The position numbers and the translations under genes were made by a program. This document shows, piece by piece, positions 28,613 through 38,388 of a stretch of DNA of 64,000 nt (positions within the stretch are counted from its first letter, which is position 1; every line of letters starts with the position of its first letter). The notes below the pieces were generated by a model. The model was not told where the DNA came from. It did no database searches and saw nothing but the letters and a program-made list of their open reading frames with translations. The stretch covers positions 993,589 to 1,057,588 of the forward strand of contig CBDEUK010000002.1 of the NCBI GenBank assembly GCA_965243205.1. Direction: 5' to 3'. Origin of the DNA: Gammaproteobacteria bacterium. Lineage in GTDB: Bacteria > Pseudomonadota > Gammaproteobacteria > Eutrophobiales > Eutrophobiaceae.

Positions 28613-29557
28613 TTATCCTTGTTCGATCACTTTGATATATTCATTTTTAGCTTCACGACTGGTTCCAACGACGATTCTTTTTTCACCATGTGAATTAATT
28701 TCAATCATACCTGAAATTTCGATCATCTCGCCTTGTATCGCTTGCCCTACATAAGTTGCAGTATAACAAACAACCTCATTCAATTCTGGATTGTCTAGAT
28801 AATATCTTGCAGGCAAATCAAAGCTTTTAGAATCATCAATGACTCTTGCTTTTAGAGTAATTGATGATTCTTTTTTAAAAGGTCCATGTTCATTAATCAA
28901 CTCATTTTCATTTAAGACAAGGCTGACATCCACTTTAGTTCCATTGTATAAAAACTTATTTAACTTACGTTCTTCATGAAATACATATTCATCAAAAGTA
29001 ATAGAAGCATCTCTTCGATTAAAACTGTCTTTCCAAACTTCATAATCAAGTGCTTGAAAAAAATCATTTTCTAATGCTTGCTTTATTAATTCTCTAACCT
29101 TACAAAATGATTCTCTACCATAAATCACAATATCAATATCAGACTTATCTGTTTGAAAACCAATGAGCACAGAACCTGTTACACCTATCGATTGTGTTTG
29201 TAACCCTGAGTTAACAAAAAAGTTAATCAATTCTAATGTTTGAGTTTGTTTAACATCATGAACAGGTAGAGTCTTTAAAAAAAGATAAGCTTCATTAGGA
29301 ATAAAAATTCTTTCAATTTCATCAATAGAAATTGCATGCAATAAAACATCGTGGTTTTTAGAATGAAATAAATATTCAGGTTTATTCTGTTTTAAAAACT
29401 CATTAGCTTGTTGCGTACTTAATTTGACAACATCACCTAATTCATCTTGATAATAACGCAATGTTGTTAAGACACGATCATCTTCCAACTCATATGCAAC
29501 GACGGCTGCATAAAATCCTTGTGTGTAGATATAATCTTTAGGTCTAAAATCAGTCAT
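28613..29557 (-). CDS. nucleotidyltransferase-fold protein (Pol-beta/MNT superfamily)
   Basis: hG[GS]...D[ILV]D motif (GVTGSVLIGFQTDKSDIDIVIY). Specific family not recognisable from sequence alone. Confidence 0.55.
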   Translation of the reverse strand: MTDFRPKDYIYTQGFYAAVVAYELEDDRVLTTLRYYQDELGDVVKLSTQQANEFLKQNKPEYLFHSKNHDVLLHAISIDEIERIFIPNEAYLFLKTLPVHDVKQTQTLELINFFVNSGLQTQSIGVTGSVLIGFQTDKSDIDIVIYGRESFCKVRELIKQALENDFFQALDYEVWKDSFNRRDASITFDEYVFHEERKLNKFLYNGTKVDVSLVLNENELINEHGPFKKESSITLKARVIDDSKSFDLPARYYLDNPELNEVVCYTATYVGQAIQGEMIEISGMIEINSHGEKRIVVGTSREAKNEYIKVIEQG

Positions 29558-29589
29558 AAAACTTTAATAAAATATTTTTTAAATAATGC

Positions 29590-29617
29590 TTGCATTCAAT
29601 TAAGTTATGCCTATAAT
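29590..29617 (+). promoter_or_regulatory. near-consensus sigma70 promoter (TTGCAT-16-TATAAT) with GC-rich discriminator
   Basis: Read directly from the sequence. GCGCGCC follows the -10 element. It sits 33 nt upstream of the divergent nucleotidyltransferase start. Confidence 0.5.
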
Positions 29618-29792
29618 GCGCGCCCATTATGAAACAAGAAACAATTAACACGCAAACGAACTTTATAATGTTGTCTCTAGAAAGCAATGTTAACAGACTT
29701 CATCGTGCCTATAAAAAACCGATAGGTGATGTAGCACATTAGATCAGGTTATCTAAAACATAGAGCCTGATAAAAATTATCATGGCTCAAAC

Positions 29793-29830
29793 AAAACCCC
29801 GATGAGCCGTGAGGACTTCGGGGTTTTTTA
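29793..29830. terminator. rho-independent terminator (CCCCGA...TCGGGG + T6), A-run on the other side
   Basis: Hairpin plus T-run. Closes a ~200-nt transcription unit started by the promoter at 29590. Confidence 0.6.
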
Positions 29831-29842
29831 TTGGAGAAAATA

Positions 29843-29971
29843 TGCCTATAGAAATAAGTAACAATTTTTTATATTTAAAAAATGATAGACGCATCAGATC
29901 TGAACATCCGTGCTGCTCTCAATGGATCGGTACGCCTGTAAAAAATGCTGATGAATATAAAACTACTTAGC
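29843..29971 (+). CDS. possible small ORF (42 aa) with good SD
   Basis: GGAGaaaatATG. No recognisable domain. May instead be part of a non-coding leader. Confidence 0.25.
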
Positions 29972-30028
29972 TTCTTGTAATGTTACGGGAGGCTAATGTT
30001 AAAGCCTTCTGGACTTAAAAATATAAAA

Positions 30029-30061
30029 GCCCGGTTGGCAAAAGCCAAACGGGCTTTTTTT
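30029..30061 (+). terminator. strong rho-independent terminator immediately upstream of the tRNA-like array
   Basis: 11-bp stem GCCCGGTTGGC/GCCAAACGGGC with AAAA loop and T7 run. Confidence 0.65.
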
Positions 30062-30062
30062 A

Positions 30063-30184
30063 TGGCATGTGCACCATAGATAGGTGAGCTGACTGTTAAT
30101 CAGTTGTATGCAAGTTACCTGCAAGGATGCAGGTAAGGGGCGTAAGCAGGAGCGGTAAGCTTTCAAATCTTGCCGTGCCAGCCA
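30063..30184 (+). ncRNA. tRNA-like element A: acceptor stem + D-arm + anticodon arm (GUU, Asn-like) + encoded CCA; T-arm replaced by an ~70-nt structured module
   Basis: Read from the sequence: 5' TGGCATG pairs with 3' CGTGCCA-G-CCA. D stem CACC/GGTG. Anticodon stem GCTGA/TCAGT with loop CTGTTAA. No TTCGA T-loop. Extra hairpin ACCTGCA-AGGA-TGCAGGT. Confidence 0.4.
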
Positions 30185-30192
30185 AATTGAAC

Positions 30193-30269
30193 GGATCGGT
30201 AGCTCAGTCAGGTAGAGCGATTGGTTGAAACCCAATGCGTCGGTGGTGCAAAGCCATCTCGATCCACCA
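30193..30269 (+). tRNA. tRNA-Phe(GAA)-like, degenerate T-loop, encoded CCA
   Basis: GGATCGG-TA-GCTC-AGTCAGGTA-GAGC... D-arm nearly identical to E. coli tRNA-Phe. Anticodon loop TTGAAAC. T-loop is TGCAAAG rather than TTCGAxT. Acceptor 7 bp then A-CCA. Confidence 0.55.
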
Positions 30270-30281
30270 ATTGATTTAAAT

Positions 30282-30501
30282 GGGCATGTTGGCAAATGGA
30301 TGCTACCACCTAAAACGGTTGCTGAAGTGGTCCGAGTAAAACCGGCAGTCGCCTAAGTTGTTAAACCAGCATGGTTGAGGATGCAGGTTAATGCTCTTGG
30401 TAAGCGGGTGTTAACTGGCGCGCGTTTCCAATGGTTTAACAAGTCAAGAGTAATGCCTTGATTGTGATTGTATGTGGGTTCGATACCCGTCATGTCCACC
30501 A
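30282..30501 (+). ncRNA. tRNA-like element C (220 nt): acceptor stem, D-arm, canonical T-arm and CCA, with an ~150-nt insertion between anticodon region and T-arm
   Basis: 5' GGGCATG pairs with 3' CATGTCC-A-CCA. T-arm GTGGG-TTCGATA-CCCGT. Stem ACCAC/GTGGT encloses a 17-nt loop. Insert contains the GGATGCAGGT motif shared with element A. Confidence 0.4.
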
Positions 30502-30512
30502 AATTAAGATAT

Positions 30513-30636
30513 ACGCCTATAGCTCAATGGCGAGAGCAACAGAATACGAATCCGTTAGGTGTAGGTCTCTTGCATGGATGCAAGAGAGGGGCGCGAGCAG
30601 GAAGCGACAAGCTTTCAACTCCTACTGGGCGTACCA
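30513..30636 (+). ncRNA. tRNA-like element B: acceptor stem + canonical D-arm + CCA, no T-arm, carries the same extra module as A
   Basis: 5' ACGCCTA-TA-GCTC-AATGGCGA-GAGC; 3' TGGGCGT-A-CCA. Hairpin TCTCTTGCA-TGGA-TGCAAGAGA followed by GGGGCGCGAGCAGGAAGCGACAAGCTTTCAA. Confidence 0.4.
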
Positions 30637-30652
30637 ATTTTAAATGTAGTAA

Positions 30653-30727
30653 TGGTCGTTAGCTTAATGGAAAAGCAGCTGCCTTTTAAGCAGCCAGATA
30701 TCCGTTCAAGTCGGATACGACCAACCA
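30653..30727 (+). tRNA. tRNA-Lys(UUU), canonical cloverleaf, encoded CCA
   Basis: Acceptor TGGTCGT/ACGACCA. D GCTT/AAGC. Anticodon stem GCTGC/GCAGC with loop CTTTTAA. T-arm ATCCG-TTCAAGT-CGGAT. Then A-CCA. Confidence 0.7.
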
Positions 30728-30741
30728 ATATAAAAGATTTT

Positions 30742-30827
30742 GTCGGTGTGGCGGAATTGGCATACGCACTGGTTTCAGAAACCAGCGTCTTTATGACATG
30801 CAGGATCGTAGCCTGCCACCGATACCA
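30742..30827 (+). tRNA. tRNA-Leu(CAG)-like (class II, long variable arm), degenerate T-loop, encoded CCA
   Basis: GTCGGTG-TG-GCGGAATTGGCATACGC is a Leu-type D-arm. Anticodon stem CTGGT/ACCAG with loop TTCAGAA. Variable arm GTC-TTTAT-GAC. T-stem GCAGG/CCTGC with loop ATCGTAG. CACCGAT-A-CCA. Confidence 0.55.
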
Positions 30828-30980
30828 AATGTTGTTTTATGAATCGAATTTATAAAACACAAAAGCGTTAGAGATAACATGTTTGAGAACAGCGGTTCAG
30901 GCTCGTGAGTTCCTGTCCGGTGCACTGAAGTTTGAATCACAAAGTGTATACCGTTCGATAAGGACATGCTTTGACACCAA

Positions 30981-31053
30981 GTGGATATAGCTCAGTTGGG
31001 AGAGCACCTGACTCATAATCAGATTGTCGAAGGTTCGATTCCTTCTATCCTCA
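30981..31053 (+). tRNA. tRNA with CAU anticodon (Met elongator or Ile2-lysidine type); no encoded CCA; one acceptor mismatch
   Basis: GTGGATA-TA-GCTC-AGTTGGGA-GAGC-A-CCTGA-CTCATAA-TCAGA-TTGTC-GAAGG-TTCGATT-CCTTC-TATCCTC-A. T2:T71 mismatch. Followed by GAAAAG. Confidence 0.6.
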
Positions 31054-31135
31054 GAAAAGTGGCGGAATGGTAAACGCACAGACCTTATAAGTCTGCGGGC
31101 AAAAGCCCTTGTGGGTTCGAATCCCACCTTTACTA
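31053..31135 (+). tRNA. class II (Leu-like D-arm, long variable arm) tRNA with anticodon UAU; abuts the previous tRNA; no CCA
   Basis: AGAAAAG-TG-GCG-GAATGGTAAA-CGC-A-CAGAC-CTTATAA-GTCTG-CGGGCAAAAGCCCTT-GTGGG-TTCGAAT-CCCAC-CTTTACT-A. A3:A70 mismatch. Confidence 0.5.
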
Positions 31136-31429
31136 CTAAGCCGATGTCGAAAGACATCATTACAACAGGGTGCCGTGAATATCCTGTTTATGAAAGATAA
31201 GCAGTCAGTATCTGGAACAACAATTTATTCATCATGATTAAAACCTGTGTTTAGGTAAGAACCTGTTTTATTACGTGACAGGAAATATTCGTCGTTAAAA
31301 AGGAAAACCACCAGGATAGGTGAAACGAATGATTCCACTTACTTAATTAAAACAGAATATTCAAACGTAAACCCGTTTTAGTTGTGTCAGGTGTCCTGTC
31401 TTTATTAACTATATAAAAGGAGAAATTTA

Positions 31430-32572
31430 ATGTTCTTTCTTAAACGTATTGTCGTAGCCGACTACGAACGTGCGTTGCTGATCAAGAACCGCAGTGTTCA
31501 ACGTGTGTTGGAACCTGGCGTGTATCGTTTTTTCGATCCGCTACGTCGTCTCAAGGTTGAGATCTACGATCTAAATGAAGCCGAATTCAATTTTGAAAAA
31601 TTGGATTATTTGATCAAACAAAAAACTGATTTGGTCAATGAACATTTTCAAGTAATTGAACTTGGCGAATTCGAGGTTGGTCTGGTTTATAAAAACGGTC
31701 AGCTCGAAGATGTATTAGAACCTGGTTCTCGTCAGCTGTATTGGAAAGGCTTAGTCGATATCGACGTTGAAGTAGTTGATATCCAAACTGACTTTATGGT
31801 TGCTAAGAATAAATTAAAAGTTCTGGTTCGTAACCGTAATACAAAGTTGGCGAATAAACTGTCTCAGTTTATCTATATCGCTGAGGTAGAACAGAACTGG
31901 GTTGGTTTACTGCTCGTTGATGGCGAGTTGGTTGAACAATTAAATGCTGGTATTTATGCATTTTGGAAGTTCAATCGCAATATCAAAGTTGAGCAGGAAG
32001 ATTTGCGAGTACAAAACATGGAAGTAAATGGTCAAGAAATCTTGACCAAGGATAAGGTGACGCTACGTGCCAACATGGCAGTAACTTTTAAAGTGACTGA
32101 TGCCATTCAAGCACGTAGCTCAGTTAAGAACTGGGTGGATCATCTATATCGCGAAGCGCAATTTGGACTGCGCCAAGCTGTGGGTACTCGAAGCTTGGAT
32201 ACGCTACTCGCAAATAAAGGCGAATTGGATCGTGGAGTCTACGATGCTGTTCGCAATCAGGTGGCTGATAACGGCATTGAAGTAATTAATGTTGGCATCA
32301 AAGATCTGATCTTACCTGGTGAAATGAAGGATATTTTGAACCAGGTTGTTGAAGCAGAGAAAGTCGCGCAAGCGAATGTGATCAAACGTCGTGAGGAAAC
32401 TGCGGCAACACGTTCTCTGTTGAATACAGCGAAACTCATGGATGAGAACCCTACCCTGCTGCGATTGAAGGAGCTGGAAACTCTGGAAAAAGTCACTGAA
32501 AAAGTTGACCGACTCACTGTTTTCGGCGGCCTTGATGGGGTCCTGCAGGATACCGTTAAGATCAATGTTTAA
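31430..32572 (+). CDS. SPFH/band-7 (stomatin/prohibitin-like) domain protein, apparently soluble, with triplicated N-terminal motif
   Basis: SPFH core (…EVINVGIKDLILPGEMKDILNQVVEAEKVAQANVIKRREETAA…). No N-terminal TM. Three ~35-aa repeats (…VLEPG.Y…VE..DL…). Confidence 0.75.
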   Translation: MFFLKRIVVADYERALLIKNRSVQRVLEPGVYRFFDPLRRLKVEIYDLNEAEFNFEKLDYLIKQKTDLVNEHFQVIELGEFEVGLVYKNGQLEDVLEPGSRQLYWKGLVDIDVEVVDIQTDFMVAKNKLKVLVRNRNTKLANKLSQFIYIAEVEQNWVGLLLVDGELVEQLNAGIYAFWKFNRNIKVEQEDLRVQNMEVNGQEILTKDKVTLRANMAVTFKVTDAIQARSSVKNWVDHLYREAQFGLRQAVGTRSLDTLLANKGELDRGVYDAVRNQVADNGIEVINVGIKDLILPGEMKDILNQVVEAEKVAQANVIKRREETAATRSLLNTAKLMDENPTLLRLKELETLEKVTEKVDRLTVFGGLDGVLQDTVKINV

Positions 32573-32656
32573 TGATGAACTGAGATCAACCCATCAAATT
32601 TGAAAGGTTCGGGGAATTGGCCCCGAACCGCTTATTAATATAAATGGAGAAATACA

Positions 32657-33250
32657 ATGTCTATCGTATGTGCAGCAATTAAAAATGGTGAAATAGCAAT
32701 CGCTGCTGATACTCAGTTAAGCTTTGGCTCTTTAATTGTTGGCTCTGATAATTTAGATAATGCATCTAAGTTATGTATGGTCGAAGATAATGTTGTTGGT
32801 ATCGTTGGTTGGAATGCTGTCAGTAGCTTATTCGAATATGTAACAGAAGAGCATAAAGAAATATTTAATTTTTCAGACAGAAAAAATATTTTAAAAACAT
32901 TATTTAAATTACATAAGCTATTAAAAAATGAATATTTTCTTGAAACTGTTGAAGATAGAGATCAACCTGTTGAATCAATTCAACTCAGAGCCATTATCAT
33001 TAATAGTGGTGGTATTTATGAGATCAATAGCTATAGAGAAGTCAATCATTATTTAAAGTACTGGGCAATCGGTTCTGGACGCTACTATGCATTAGGAGCA
33101 ATACATGCTCAATATGAAAGCCAAATTAATGCTAAAGACTTGGTATTAAACGGCGTAGCATCTGCATGTTGTTTTGATGAAAGTTGTTCTTTACCTTCTC
33201 AAATAGAAATCATCAAAGCAAAACAAGAAAGTATTGCTATGGCAAGTTAA
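32657..33250 (+). CDS. HslV-like Ntn-hydrolase (proteasome beta-type) peptidase homolog
   Basis: N-terminal MSIVCAAIKNGEIAIAADTQLSFG parallels HslV (TTIVSVRRNG.VVIGGDGQVSLG). AIGSGRYYALGA parallels the HslV GSGG region. No hslU nearby. Confidence 0.6.
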   Translation: MSIVCAAIKNGEIAIAADTQLSFGSLIVGSDNLDNASKLCMVEDNVVGIVGWNAVSSLFEYVTEEHKEIFNFSDRKNILKTLFKLHKLLKNEYFLETVEDRDQPVESIQLRAIIINSGGIYEINSYREVNHYLKYWAIGSGRYYALGAIHAQYESQINAKDLVLNGVASACCFDESCSLPSQIEIIKAKQESIAMAS

Positions 33251-33277
33251 ACTATTATTTACATTAAGGAAAATACA

Positions 33278-34474
33278 ATGCCTATTAAACAAATTATTAC
33301 CAAAGGGAAAGTCCCCGTTAAAATTTATACTGATGACATTGAATTTGAAGCGTATAACCAACTGAAAAATATTTCAGAATTACCTTTCATTCACAGCCAT
33401 GTCGCGGCAATGCCTGATGTACATATGGGTAAAGGTGCAACCGTTGGTTCAGTTATTCCAACTAAAGGCGCAATCATCCCTGCTGCGGTTGGCGTTGATA
33501 TTGGTTGTGGCATGAATGCCATTCGTTTGTCATTGAAAGCAGAACAATTACCTGACAATTTACGCGGTTTGCGCACTACCATTGAATCGGTTGTGCCTGT
33601 TGGTTTTAACATGCATAAAAAAGATATGGCAAAAGACTCAACCATTCGTGCGGTTGCTAAAGGTCTTGAACCTATCATGGCAAAGCATAAAAAACTCAAT
33701 AACAGTAAAAACAAACCGTTTTTAACTTGGGTAAGACAATTAGGTACTTTAGGTGGTGGTAATCATTTTATTGAAATTTGTCTGGATGAAGAAGATTTTG
33801 TTTGGATCATGTTGCATTCAGGAAGCCGAGGCATCGGTAACCGAATTGGTCAATACTTTATTGAATTGGCTAAGAAAGACATGCAACGTCTACAAATCAA
33901 CTTACCAGATAAAGACCTCGCTTACTTTACTGAAGGTACGGATTATTTTGATGACTATGTTGAAGCCGTTAGTTGGGCTCAAGACTATGCCATGATCAAT
34001 CGTAAAGAAATGATGCGTATGATTTTGGATGTCTTAAAGAAAAAACTACCAAGCTTTAAGATCGATAAACAAGCGATTAATTGTCATCATAATTATGTGA
34101 CTGAAGAAATCCATTACGATGAAAAAGTCTTTGTGACACGTAAAGGTGCAATTAAAGCTGGAGATGGCGATTTAGGTATTATCCCAGGCAGTATGGGAGC
34201 ACGTTCTTATATTGTTTCTGGAAAAGGTAATCCTACATCATTTAACTCTTGCGCACATGGTGCCGGAAGAAAAATGAGCCGTACCCAAGCAAAAAAACAA
34301 TTCAATACAGTCGATGTTGAAAAACAAACCGAAGGTGTTGAATGTCGTAAAGACAAAGGCATCATCGATGAAATCCCTGGTGCTTATAAGGATATTGATC
34401 AAGTGATGGAAAACCAATCGGATTTGGTCGATATTGTTCATACATTAAAACAAGTGGTTTGTGTTAAAGGTTAA
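33278..34474 (+). CDS. rtcB: RNA 3'-phosphate/2',3'-cyclic phosphate ligase RtcB
   Basis: 398 aa. The metal-binding motifs (MPDVHMGKGATVGSV, GVDIGCGM), the HNYV region, and the length all match RtcB. Confidence 0.9.
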   Translation: MPIKQIITKGKVPVKIYTDDIEFEAYNQLKNISELPFIHSHVAAMPDVHMGKGATVGSVIPTKGAIIPAAVGVDIGCGMNAIRLSLKAEQLPDNLRGLRTTIESVVPVGFNMHKKDMAKDSTIRAVAKGLEPIMAKHKKLNNSKNKPFLTWVRQLGTLGGGNHFIEICLDEEDFVWIMLHSGSRGIGNRIGQYFIELAKKDMQRLQINLPDKDLAYFTEGTDYFDDYVEAVSWAQDYAMINRKEMMRMILDVLKKKLPSFKIDKQAINCHHNYVTEEIHYDEKVFVTRKGAIKAGDGDLGIIPGSMGARSYIVSGKGNPTSFNSCAHGAGRKMSRTQAKKQFNTVDVEKQTEGVECRKDKGIIDEIPGAYKDIDQVMENQSDLVDIVHTLKQVVCVKG

Positions 34475-34490
34475 AGGAGGTGATATTTTT

Positions 34491-34694
34491 ATGACTAAAC
34501 GCAGAAACCCGTTTGCTTGCGCACCCATTATGCGAAAAGGTGGAATGCATATTCAATCGAAAACTGGTCAACGTCGTTCGAATAAAAATAAATTATTGGA
34601 CGAAGTAGATGAGTATTTAGATGAACTAAAGCAGACACAAAAAAACCGAATCATCGGCAAATCCGATGATTCGGCCACTATCATTTATTTTTAA
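34491..34694 (+). CDS. small basic hypothetical protein co-transcribed with rtcB
   Basis: 67 aa. AAGGAGG SD upstream of the ATG. Lys/Arg-rich N-terminus and acidic middle. No family recognised. Confidence 0.4.
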   Translation: MTKRRNPFACAPIMRKGGMHIQSKTGQRRSNKNKLLDEVDEYLDELKQTQKNRIIGKSDDSATIIYF

Positions 34695-36870: not shown

Positions 36871-38388
36871 ATGACTGACCAACGGAATTTAGAACTTCTA
36901 CTTGAGTCGCACTTCCCTATTTTAGTGATTGAAACACACGAAGAATTGCGCACCTTGGAACTATTACAAACGATTGTAAAGAAAACCAATAAAGGTATGC
37001 ATATTTGGTCAGCTGCAGATGGTTTAAAACATCATTTAGTATCTAAATCAGATTTTAGCATCGAGGGTATGTCGCTTGAAGGTAGGCAATCTGATGAAAA
37101 AGATCTGACTGATCCCGAAGAAGCTTTGAGAGAAATAAAAAAATCTATTATCAATGAAATTATTGTTTTAATGGATTTTCATCCTTATTTGACCAACCCT
37201 AAAATTTTACGTTTAGTTAAAGAACTCGCATTAAACGCATCTAGAAGTGAAAATATTTTGGTACTTATTAGCCATAGATTAGAAGTACCAGAAGAAATTA
37301 AACGTCTTACAGCTAATTTTAAATTATCGTTACCGGATGAAAATAATCTTCGTCAATTAATTCTTGAAGAAGCTAAAGCTTGGAGCATTAAAAATCGAGC
37401 TCAAAAAGTAAAAACGGATAACAAGGCTATAGATTTATTGGTTAGAAATTTACTGGGACTAACCATCAGCGACTCTAAACGTCTAATACGCAATGCAATC
37501 TATGATGATGGAGCAATTACTCATAGTGATATTGAATCAGTAATGCAAGCAAAATATCAATTAGTTAGTCAAGATAGTGCGTTAACGTTTGAATATGATA
37601 CTGTAGCATTCAATGATGTCGGCGGTTTTAAAAATTTAAAAAAATGGCTAGATATTCGAAAAAACTATTTCTTAGATTCTTCTTCTGAAAACCAAGTTGA
37701 TACACCTAAAGGCATTCTATTATTAGGTGTACAAGGCTGCGGTAAAAGTTTAGCGGCAAAATCTGTTGCAGGTTGTTGGGGTGTCCCATTATTACGACTC
37801 GATTTTGGCGCTTTGTATAATAAATATATTGGTGAAACTGAAAAAAATATTCGTGATGCACTAAATGCAGCCCAACAATTAGCACCATGCGTGATGTGGA
37901 TAGATGAAATCGAAAAAGGTATACAAACCGATAGTAATGATTCAGGTACATCACAACGAGTATTAGGAACCTTACTCACTTGGATGGCTGAAAATAATTC
38001 AAAAGTGTTTATTGTAGCAACAGCCAATAACATCTCGAGTTTACCACCAGAACTTATTCGCAAAGGCCGATTAGACGAAATATTTTTTGTCGATTTACCT
38101 TGTAATCAAACTCGTGAAGAAATCTTCAAAGTTCATCTTAATAAGCGTAAGATCAAACAAGATAAAATTAATTTTGAAGAGATTATTGACTTAAGTGATG
38201 GGTTTTCTGGTTCCGAAATAGAACAAGCGATTGTCTCCGCATGTTATTCAGCCCTATCTGTTGAAGAAGAGCTTAATTCCCGACATATCTTAGAAGAAAT
38301 AAAACAAACTCGACCGCTATCGATTGTTATGGAAGAAGAAATTTCTCAATTGCGCAATTGGGCAAAAAATAGAACCGTGATTGCTTAA
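36871..38388 (+). CDS. AAA+ ATPase (classic AAA clade) with ~240-aa N-terminal domain of unknown function
   Basis: Walker A GVQGCGKS, Walker B VMWIDEIE, second region of homology (ATANN...LIRKGRLDE). Confidence 0.85.

Follow-up and report, generated by a model that had tools for sequence, protein, structure and literature searches.

A likely member of the predicted b7a-tRNA/SPFH/RtcB RNA-repair system, carrying a BPH-family peptidase gene, in a gammaproteobacterium

A bacterial system joining the RNA ligase RtcB to a Band-7/SPFH protein and a non-coding RNA (ncRNA) termed 'b7a-tRNA' was predicted by Burroughs and Aravind (NAR 2016), as summarized in a Y RNA preprint (bioRxiv 10.1101/312249); it has remained purely computational since then, and the substrates of bacterial RtcB are still debated. 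Parts of such a neighbourhood appear elsewhere. The SPFH protein PaFlo8 (PA14_60630) of P. aeruginosa is encoded within the rtc locus (PMC13086221), and the long tRNA arrays of cyanobacteria have rtcB and HNH genes as neighbours; in Anabaena, translational stress induces the array, which is regulated together with rtcB (PMC8421152). BPH, a proteasome-type peptidase of solved structure (PDB 5OVS/5OVT/5OVU), is a tetradecamer with no known unfoldase, partner or function, and its published contexts are argG, PDC and Hsp33 operons; a Ser1 subtype is described for BPHs outside Betaproteobacteria, with Thr1 otherwise (Fuchs et al., JBC 2018, PMC5777263). Our literature search found 'b7a-tRNA' only in the Y RNA preprint and found no paper joining RtcB, SPFH and proteasome. 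Here we describe a locus in a 64,000-nt stretch of DNA from a gammaproteobacterium of the Eutrophobiaceae (GenBank assembly GCA_965243205.1, contig CBDEUK010000002.1, positions 993,589 to 1,057,588 of the forward strand), hereafter called the window and numbered from its first letter. An SPFH gene, a BPH gene, rtcB and a gene for a small basic protein follow one another there, downstream of tRNA-like genes. The core of this arrangement is likely to belong to the predicted system, and BPH and the small protein have been added to it in one narrow gammaproteobacterial lineage.

The preliminary description of the window, made from its letters alone, had read these four open reading frames (ORFs) on the forward (+) strand, and profile searches agree with it. 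They encode an SPFH/Band-7 protein at 31430-32572 (Pfam Band_7 PF01145, E=1.7e-26, residues 152-323), a BPH-family peptidase at 32657-33250 (Proteasome PF00227, E=2.5e-6, 27.7 bits where the cutoff is 22.4), a full-length RtcB at 33278-34474 (PF01139, E=7.5e-134, 447.6 bits where the cutoff is 27, with all 426 profile positions covered) and, as also described, a basic protein of 67 amino acids (aa) at 34491-34694, without a Pfam family. The intergenic gaps are 84, 27 and 16 nt, a Shine-Dalgarno-like sequence precedes every one of the four ORFs, and RtcB lies 705 nt from the SPFH stop within the same operon. On the same strand, a spacer or leader of 293 nt (31137-31429) separates the SPFH gene from the last tRNA-like gene, close to the roughly 300 nt first reported. 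The statement that rtcA, rtcR and Ro60/Rsr are lacking also holds for the ORFs at 25-38 kb, among which no RtcA, RtcR or Ro60/TROVE was seen, although this is not exhaustive, the rest of the 64-kb window not having been profile-scanned. Within the same scope, the ORFs around RtcB (SPFH, BPH, small protein, a PL14-like protein, an SRPBCC protein and an AAA ATPase) gave no match to RTC or sigma-54 activator domains.

The tRNA-like RNAs and the SPFH gene form the most constant part of the locus. For comparison we used 80 metagenome contigs carrying SPFH homologues at 47-63% identity; together with one further contig, L081, these gave 65 loci in which 700 nt or more lie upstream of SPFH, 40 with 3 kb or more and 33 with enough downstream sequence. 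A same-strand tRNA ends 237-616 nt (median 353) upstream of SPFH in 58 of the 65 loci, and the link between tRNA-like RNA and SPFH is thus very strongly conserved. Arrays of 4-24 tRNAs occur in 17 of the 40 loci. RtcB is directly downstream of SPFH in 11 of the 33 and stands elsewhere in the locus in others. Genes for an HNH endonuclease also recur, in 13 loci, as do those for an HTH regulator in 7 and for the RNA-repair nucleotidyltransferase RlaP in 3. The slot between SPFH and RtcB varies in content, and can be empty or hold either a protein of about 300 aa or BPH. In L163, the closest SPFH relative with DNA (86% identical), the order is SPFH, a 303-aa protein, RtcB and the small protein. 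That slot protein belongs to a family of about 300-335 aa found between SPFH and RtcB in nine loci (L163 2902-3813, L085 1271-2278, L087 4802-5809 and six others), and the family gave no match in Pfam, PADLOC or PDB.

A structured RNA motif of about 75 nt, here called R1, stands just 5' of the proximal tRNA-like gene (window 30885-30959, + strand; 74.8 bits with its covariance model). Its consensus reads AGCGGUUCAGGUUC...CCUGUCCUGUGCAC..GCU, followed by a variable hairpin and then AUYGCA.GGUGURUAC. Besides the window, the model matches 43 of 82 comparison loci, always on the + strand and always just 5' of the proximal tRNA, at a distance of 20-100 nt; the sites include L081 2162-2235 and L088 6476-6549 among about 40 others, and the motif is also present in L163 (1098-1172), L164 and L165. 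Across the alignment 91% of cells are paired, with compensatory changes at 11 of the 17 pairs, whereas none of 500 shuffles came up to this and slid controls gave at most 56%. R1 has no match in Rfam 15 at E<=1, and together with the tRNA mimic that follows it may make up a single composite RNA.

Two proximal tRNA-like genes follow R1 on the + strand. The first (30981-31053; ARAGORN and Rfam, 65.3 bits) has the anticodon CAU and no encoded CCA, and it is our candidate for the 'b7a-tRNA'; the second (31053-31136; ARAGORN) has the anticodon UAU and a long variable arm, and a hairpin lies directly 3' of it. The anticodon of this second gene drifts freely, being UAU in the window and, at the orthologous position, UUA in L163, CAU in L081 and UUG in L165; ARAGORN labels the UUA gene (L163 1263-1336; L164 390-463) 'tRNA-Stop'. 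The sequence of the 293-nt spacer is conserved with L163 and L081 only. Over the whole comparison set, the D and T arms of the proximal tRNA are conserved (1.4-2.0 bits) and the anticodon is variable (0.1-0.7 bits), falling into 27 classes that include non-standard loops and a stop anticodon, and CCA is encoded in 24 of 54 proximal tRNAs. A conserved body with a hypervariable anticodon, and with CCA in only this fraction, is more in keeping with a tRNA mimic than with a tRNA that decodes.

The catalytic motifs of RtcB are intact. AMPDVH, DIGCGM, GGGNHFIE, HSGSRG and CAHGAGRKMSR line up with solved RtcB structures from Thermus and Pyrococcus, and we take them to hold the metal-binding Cys, His and Asp residues and, in HGAGR, the guanylylated His.

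The SPFH protein was described as apparently soluble, and its hydropathy profile bears this out: no transmembrane helix was found, the maximum Kyte-Doolittle mean over 19 residues being 0.98, and the protein lacks the membrane anchor that stomatin, HflK/C and flotillin cages typically have at the N terminus. In an AF2 model (pLDDT 71.7), residues 1-190 form three N-terminal beta-rich modules, followed by the SPFH domain (197-294) and a long C-terminal helix (296-362). The top Foldseek matches of the model are stomatin, HflK/C, prohibitin and QmcA cages, with E down to 2e-11; the major vault protein (MVP) was outside the top 50, and we rejected the idea of a miniature MVP. The protein has a cage-type fold and no membrane anchor. 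More than 8000 homologues, about 60% identical, occur across many metagenomes, and several close ones are named PA4582-like or 'slipin'.

The peptidase was first called an HslV-like Ntn hydrolase. The assignment as an Ntn hydrolase stands, with Ser1, Asp and Lys conserved, but the sequence places it among Ser1-type BPHs and not with HslV. A profile of its family matches the BPH structures 5OVU (E=3.4e-52) and 5OVS (1.6e-43), whereas the best HslV reaches only 6.3e-6 and the best 20S beta subunit 1.1e-5. The NCBIfam HslV model TIGR03692 gives 23.7 bits against a cutoff of 157.75, and no HslU-like gene is adjacent. BPHs as a family are characterized by a homo-tetradecameric double ring with an acidic pore loop. 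The window protein lacks a propeptide; M1-S2, D18, K38 and G139-S140-G141 are invariant in 25 homologues and correspond, with Ser2 becoming Ser1 once Met is removed, to Ser1, Asp17, Lys37 and Gly-Ser-Gly, and the catalytic residues are intact. In the 84-nt gap before this gene stands a GC-rich hairpin of 9 bp that resembles a terminator (GGTTCGGGG...CCCCGAACC, 32606-32629, + strand); it is possibly a weak terminator, an attenuator, an RNA stabilizer or a scar of BPH insertion.

Most BPH genes have other surroundings. A genome scan with a 10-sequence alignment found 488 relatives, and of 80 GTDB genome loci examined, with RtcB sought within 8 kb, one has RtcB near BPH and none has a window-type SPFH. 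In about 27 of the 80 genomes (L009-L080, e.g. L023, L024 and L025) BPH lies inside a riboflavin cluster, glyA-nrdR-ribD-BPH-ribE-ribBA-ribH-nusB, a context that is not among the argG, PDC and Hsp33 contexts of PMC5777263. The subclade nearest the window, which we define as BPHs at least 51% identical to the window protein and which offers a small sample of 11 contexts, presents another picture. The P0001 contig (BPH 83% identical) has SPFH-BPH-RtcB-small protein with the same flanks as the window; L081 (69%) has tRNAs-SPFH-BPH and no RtcB; L166 (63%) has RtcB-BPH-small protein; and L005 (51%) has tRNA-Arg, tRNA-Cys, RtcB and HNH, then BPH. In four distinct contigs with BPHs of 53-58% identity (L167/168, L169/170, L082 and L001), an ORF of 47-51 aa belonging to the small-protein family lies 10-25 nt upstream of BPH. 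Within this subclade BPH is not randomly placed; the sample being small, we give its functional coupling to the RNA module about an even chance.

It is the small protein that links BPH with the RNA module. In the window its gene follows a strong Shine-Dalgarno sequence, AAGGAGG, 8 nt upstream, and the protein carries RNPxAxxP(I/L)MRKGGxH near its N terminus. The family, which is undescribed so far, comprises 406 or more cluster representatives at E<=1e-3 (HMMER) and shares the motif RNPxAxxP(L/I)(M/L)RKGGxHxxSKxGQR, followed by an acidic helix. Its members stand beside RtcB, beside BPH or within tRNA arrays (for example L166 1116-1319, L163 5046-5261, L167 512-655, L082 9239-9394 and L087 1852-2085), including the arrays of four SPFH loci that lack BPH (L086, L087, L091 and L095). 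The family has no match in Pfam, NCBIfam or PDB, and a resemblance by eye to ArfA or Pup, which found no support in Pfam or NCBIfam at E<=10 or in PDB, was set aside.

The array of the window is short and lies on the + strand. It comprises 6-9 tRNA or tRNA-like genes, three of them with large insertions, and no HNH gene; ARAGORN calls five tRNAs at 30193-31136. Among its members upstream of R1 are tRNA-Phe(GAA) at 30193-30269 (ARAGORN; Rfam tRNA, 54.5 bits), tRNA-Lys(UUU) at 30653-30727 (ARAGORN; Rfam, 65.2 bits) and tRNA-Leu(CAG) at 30742-30827 (ARAGORN; Rfam, 44.8 bits). The first insert-bearing member, a putative tRNA-like gene at 30063-30184 called by neither ARAGORN nor Rfam, was read by eye: it has a 7-bp acceptor stem (tggcatg/cgtgcca), D-, anticodon- and T-stems, the anticodon GUU, a T-loop insertion of about 55 nt and an encoded CCA, and L163 has no counterpart of it. 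The second, at 30281-30508, is a 228-nt tRNA-like RNA whose fold shows the acceptor, D and T arms; it ends in a CCA tail, and an insertion of about 150 nt stands where the anticodon/variable region would be. A typical group I intron would be longer, no Rfam family matches this RNA at E<=1, and its nhmmer homologues (L094 3159-3371, E=3e-24; L160 1305-1499; L114 2713-2897) all lie in SPFH loci. The third, tRNA-Arg(ACG) at 30513-30636 (Rfam tRNA at 30513-30633, 40.9 bits), has a structured T-loop insertion of 54 nt, which is recent since the orthologous L163 tRNA-Arg(ACG) lacks it. The T-loop inserts of the first and third (the latter at 30566-30620) are about 70% similar. We considered a mobile repeat and rejected it, as only two copies occur in the window and none beyond chance in other loci. 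Neither the inserts nor R1 matched known ribozyme, intron or Y RNA families in Rfam at E<=1, and we know of no bacterial tRNAs with T-loop inserts adjoining an RtcB ligase.

The array is preceded on the + strand by about 500 nt of non-coding sequence (29560-30062), with a near-consensus promoter (TTGCAT-17-TATAAT at ~29591-29619) and two strong terminator-like hairpins (~29797-29832 and ~30027-30062). Together they suggest one or two small RNAs; Rfam gave only weak sub-threshold matches there. Divergent from the array is a gene for a 314-aa Pol-beta-type nucleotidyltransferase (28613-29557, - strand), with a weak NTP_transf_2 match and a GS...DxD motif, which is not of the RlaP family. On the other side, 2.2 kb downstream of the operon and beyond three opposite-strand genes, lies a gene for a 505-aa AAA ATPase of the classical clade (PAN/Cdc48/FtsH-like; 36871-38388, + strand), whose best PADLOC match is IetA (E=8e-32). 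The window and the P0001 contig, both with BPH, share this ATPase, and the corresponding region of L163, a locus lacking BPH, gave no AAA-domain gene call; with three genomes compared, its co-presence with BPH is probably synteny rather than partnership. Neither the nucleotidyltransferase nor the ATPase was retained as a part of the system, there being no tblastn match to either in L001-L162 (L163-L172 were not searched). An anti-phage defence system was likewise rejected, as neither the 303-aa slot protein nor any of the operon's four proteins has a PADLOC match, and so was a phage origin, as IMG/VR holds only one SPFH relative.

Taking this evidence together, we consider it likely that the locus is a b7a-tRNA/SPFH/RtcB RNA-repair system with a short auxiliary tRNA array and lineage-added BPH and small protein. 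Ribotoxins such as anticodon nucleases would leave 2',3'-cyclic-phosphate/5'-OH ends on tRNA or rRNA, which RtcB would reseal. The C-terminal helix may let SPFH assemble as a ring or cage, as stomatin and HflK/C do, and with the R1/tRNA-like RNA the SPFH protein could serve as a scaffold or cofactor for RtcB, as proposed for Ro60-YrlA; the array would supply spare or decoy tRNAs. The BPH barrel, which has no unfoldase, would most likely be a proteolytic accessory of the module in this lineage, in line with the general pairing of SPFH proteins with proteases (HflK/C-FtsH, QmcA-NfeD), and the disordered small basic protein might be its adaptor, regulator or substrate. Several points weigh against parts of this reading. 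As summarized in the preprint (bioRxiv 10.1101/312249), the b7a-tRNA ncRNA was never validated and the system is a prediction. The known SPFH cages are membrane-anchored and the window SPFH is not. RtcB is not adjacent in two thirds of the SPFH loci, and the SPFH-RNA pair may therefore have a role apart from ligation. As for BPH, its coupling to SPFH or RtcB is lineage-specific at best and could be incidental, and the evidence on that side is also what favours a second account, in which BPH and the small ORF are a nomadic stress-operon hitch-hiker, inserted by chance between SPFH and RtcB in one lineage and unrelated to RNA repair, beside a real b7a-tRNA/SPFH/RtcB module. BPH is found in none of the 80 SPFH metagenome loci, and RtcB and SPFH stand near one and none, respectively, of the 80 BPH loci; most BPH genes sit in unrelated housekeeping or stress operons, about 27 of 80 in the riboflavin operon and the published ones in contexts as heterogeneous as argG, PDC and Hsp33. 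A strong GC-rich hairpin separates SPFH from BPH, the close relative L163 has a different gene in the BPH slot, and several small protein-BPH pairs have no RNA-repair gene nearby. Chance insertion does not, however, predict that the linkage should recur in at least four gene orders in the nearest BPH subclade, and the small protein that pairs with BPH is also found beside RtcB and in tRNA arrays of BPH-less loci. We therefore take the hitch-hiker account as possible but somewhat doubtful. A more far-reaching version, that the Ser1-BPH subclade and the small disordered protein form a proteolytic arm, with a soluble SPFH cage and its R1-tRNA mimic RNA housing or gating BPH and the small protein acting as its adaptor, tag or substrate, seems unlikely to us; were it true, it would give BPH its first physiological role and partners, and bacteria a soluble SPFH ribonucleoprotein compartment.

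The preliminary description had gone further in one respect, proposing a dedicated, conserved unit of a previously unrecognized kind, made up of SPFH, an HslV-like peptidase and RtcB, that acts on the adjacent tRNA-like RNAs. The three genes do lie on the same strand with short gaps, their order is identical in one closely related contig (P0001), and the adjacent tRNA-like RNAs are real. The trio is nonetheless found solely in the window and that one near-identical relative: L081 lacks RtcB, L163 lacks BPH, all 80 SPFH loci lack BPH, and among the 80 BPH loci RtcB accompanies one and SPFH none. It is not a conserved unit, and the SPFH-RtcB slot varies among relatives. Nor is the neighbourhood new in kind, since its core of SPFH, tRNA-like RNA and RtcB is the prediction of 2016, as the summary in bioRxiv 10.1101/312249 relates it. 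What survives is the broader suggestion of an RNA-repair or stress module with tRNA-like RNAs, loosely like Rsr-Y RNA loci, which matches that prediction and the tRNA-SPFH link in 58 of 65 loci; a dedicated trio is very improbable. An alternative of another sort concerns the RNA itself. R1, the proximal tRNA-like RNAs and the spacer of about 300 nt might be a single 5' leader of the SPFH(-RtcB) mRNA, which we hold improbable, and it is similarly improbable that anticodon-nuclease cleavage or the processing state of the decoy embedded in it switches on the genes, replacing an RtcR/CARF sensor. Such a cis-acting sensor would be in keeping with the fixed same-strand order of motif, tRNA-like RNA, 240-620-nt spacer and SPFH in dozens of loci, with the hypervariable anticodon on a conserved body, including non-standard loops and a stop anticodon, and with RtcR not being seen among the 25-38 kb ORFs; a scan of the spacer found no strong sigma-70-like promoter, consensus promoter scans being weak evidence. 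Yet 24 of 54 proximal tRNAs encode CCA, which fits released, mature tRNA-like RNAs rather than a leader, and the second of the tRNA-like genes has a hairpin immediately 3' of it.

Given that the core is already published, the new leads are the link of BPH and the small protein to the module and the R1 motif. The comparison set also sharpens the anatomy of the system, which shows a fixed order of motif, tRNA mimic, spacer and SPFH with a hypervariable anticodon, to which optional RtcB, HNH and RlaP genes, tRNA arrays and a variable accessory slot are added. Two orphans are thereby connected to it, namely BPH, with its solved structure, and the small-protein family, with its 406 or more cluster representatives. 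Should the coupling be real, BPH gains partners and a first hint of its purpose, and a tractable model of a soluble SPFH ribonucleoprotein becomes available; if not, the locus is one more member of a known predicted system.

The closest described system remains b7a-tRNA/Band-7/RtcB as summarized in bioRxiv 10.1101/312249. The window resembles it in having tRNA-like genes (30981-31136) 293 nt before SPFH, with RtcB adjacent, and some SPFH loci share its RlaP nucleotidyltransferase. It differs in adding BPH and the small basic protein, in having two proximal tRNA-like genes and an array with insert-bearing tRNAs, and in R1, which that summary does not mention. The Rsr (Ro60)-YrlA/YrlB-RtcB(A) systems of Salmonella and other bacteria likewise combine a ligase, a ring or cage scaffold and a tRNA-mimicking ncRNA, and there, too, the scaffold and RNA are proposed as an RtcB cofactor (bioRxiv 10.1101/312249). 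The scaffold in the window is SPFH and not Ro60, with no TROVE domain in the ORFs scanned at 25-38 kb; Rfam scans of the window gave no Y RNA family (YrlA/YrlB), and its tRNA-like RNA retains a complete cloverleaf with the anticodon arm. In contrast to rtcBA-rtcR operons, no RtcA or RtcR was matched among the scanned ORFs beside rtcB. Long tRNA arrays hold tens of tRNA genes, usually with an HNH endonuclease gene upstream. Those of cyanobacteria (PMC8421152) find their likeness in SPFH loci, which carry as many as 24 tRNAs and, in 13 loci, an HNH gene of that kind, whereas the window array is short, with 6-9 genes, no HNH and three insert-bearing members; that paper does not mention SPFH. The published BPHs (PMC5777263) share with the window family the Ser1 nucleophile, the lack of a propeptide, Asp17, Lys37 and Gly-Ser-Gly, but the subclade described here stands beside SPFH, RtcB, HNH and the small protein, whereas many others lie in the nrdR-ribD-ribE operon. 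Finally, HflK/C-FtsH and QmcA-YbbJ (NfeD) are SPFH proteins encoded with a protease and are the top fold matches of the window SPFH. In those systems SPFH physically encages or regulates the protease; where they pair a membrane-anchored SPFH with FtsH or a ClpP-like NfeD, the window encodes an apparently soluble SPFH beside a proteasome-type barrel.

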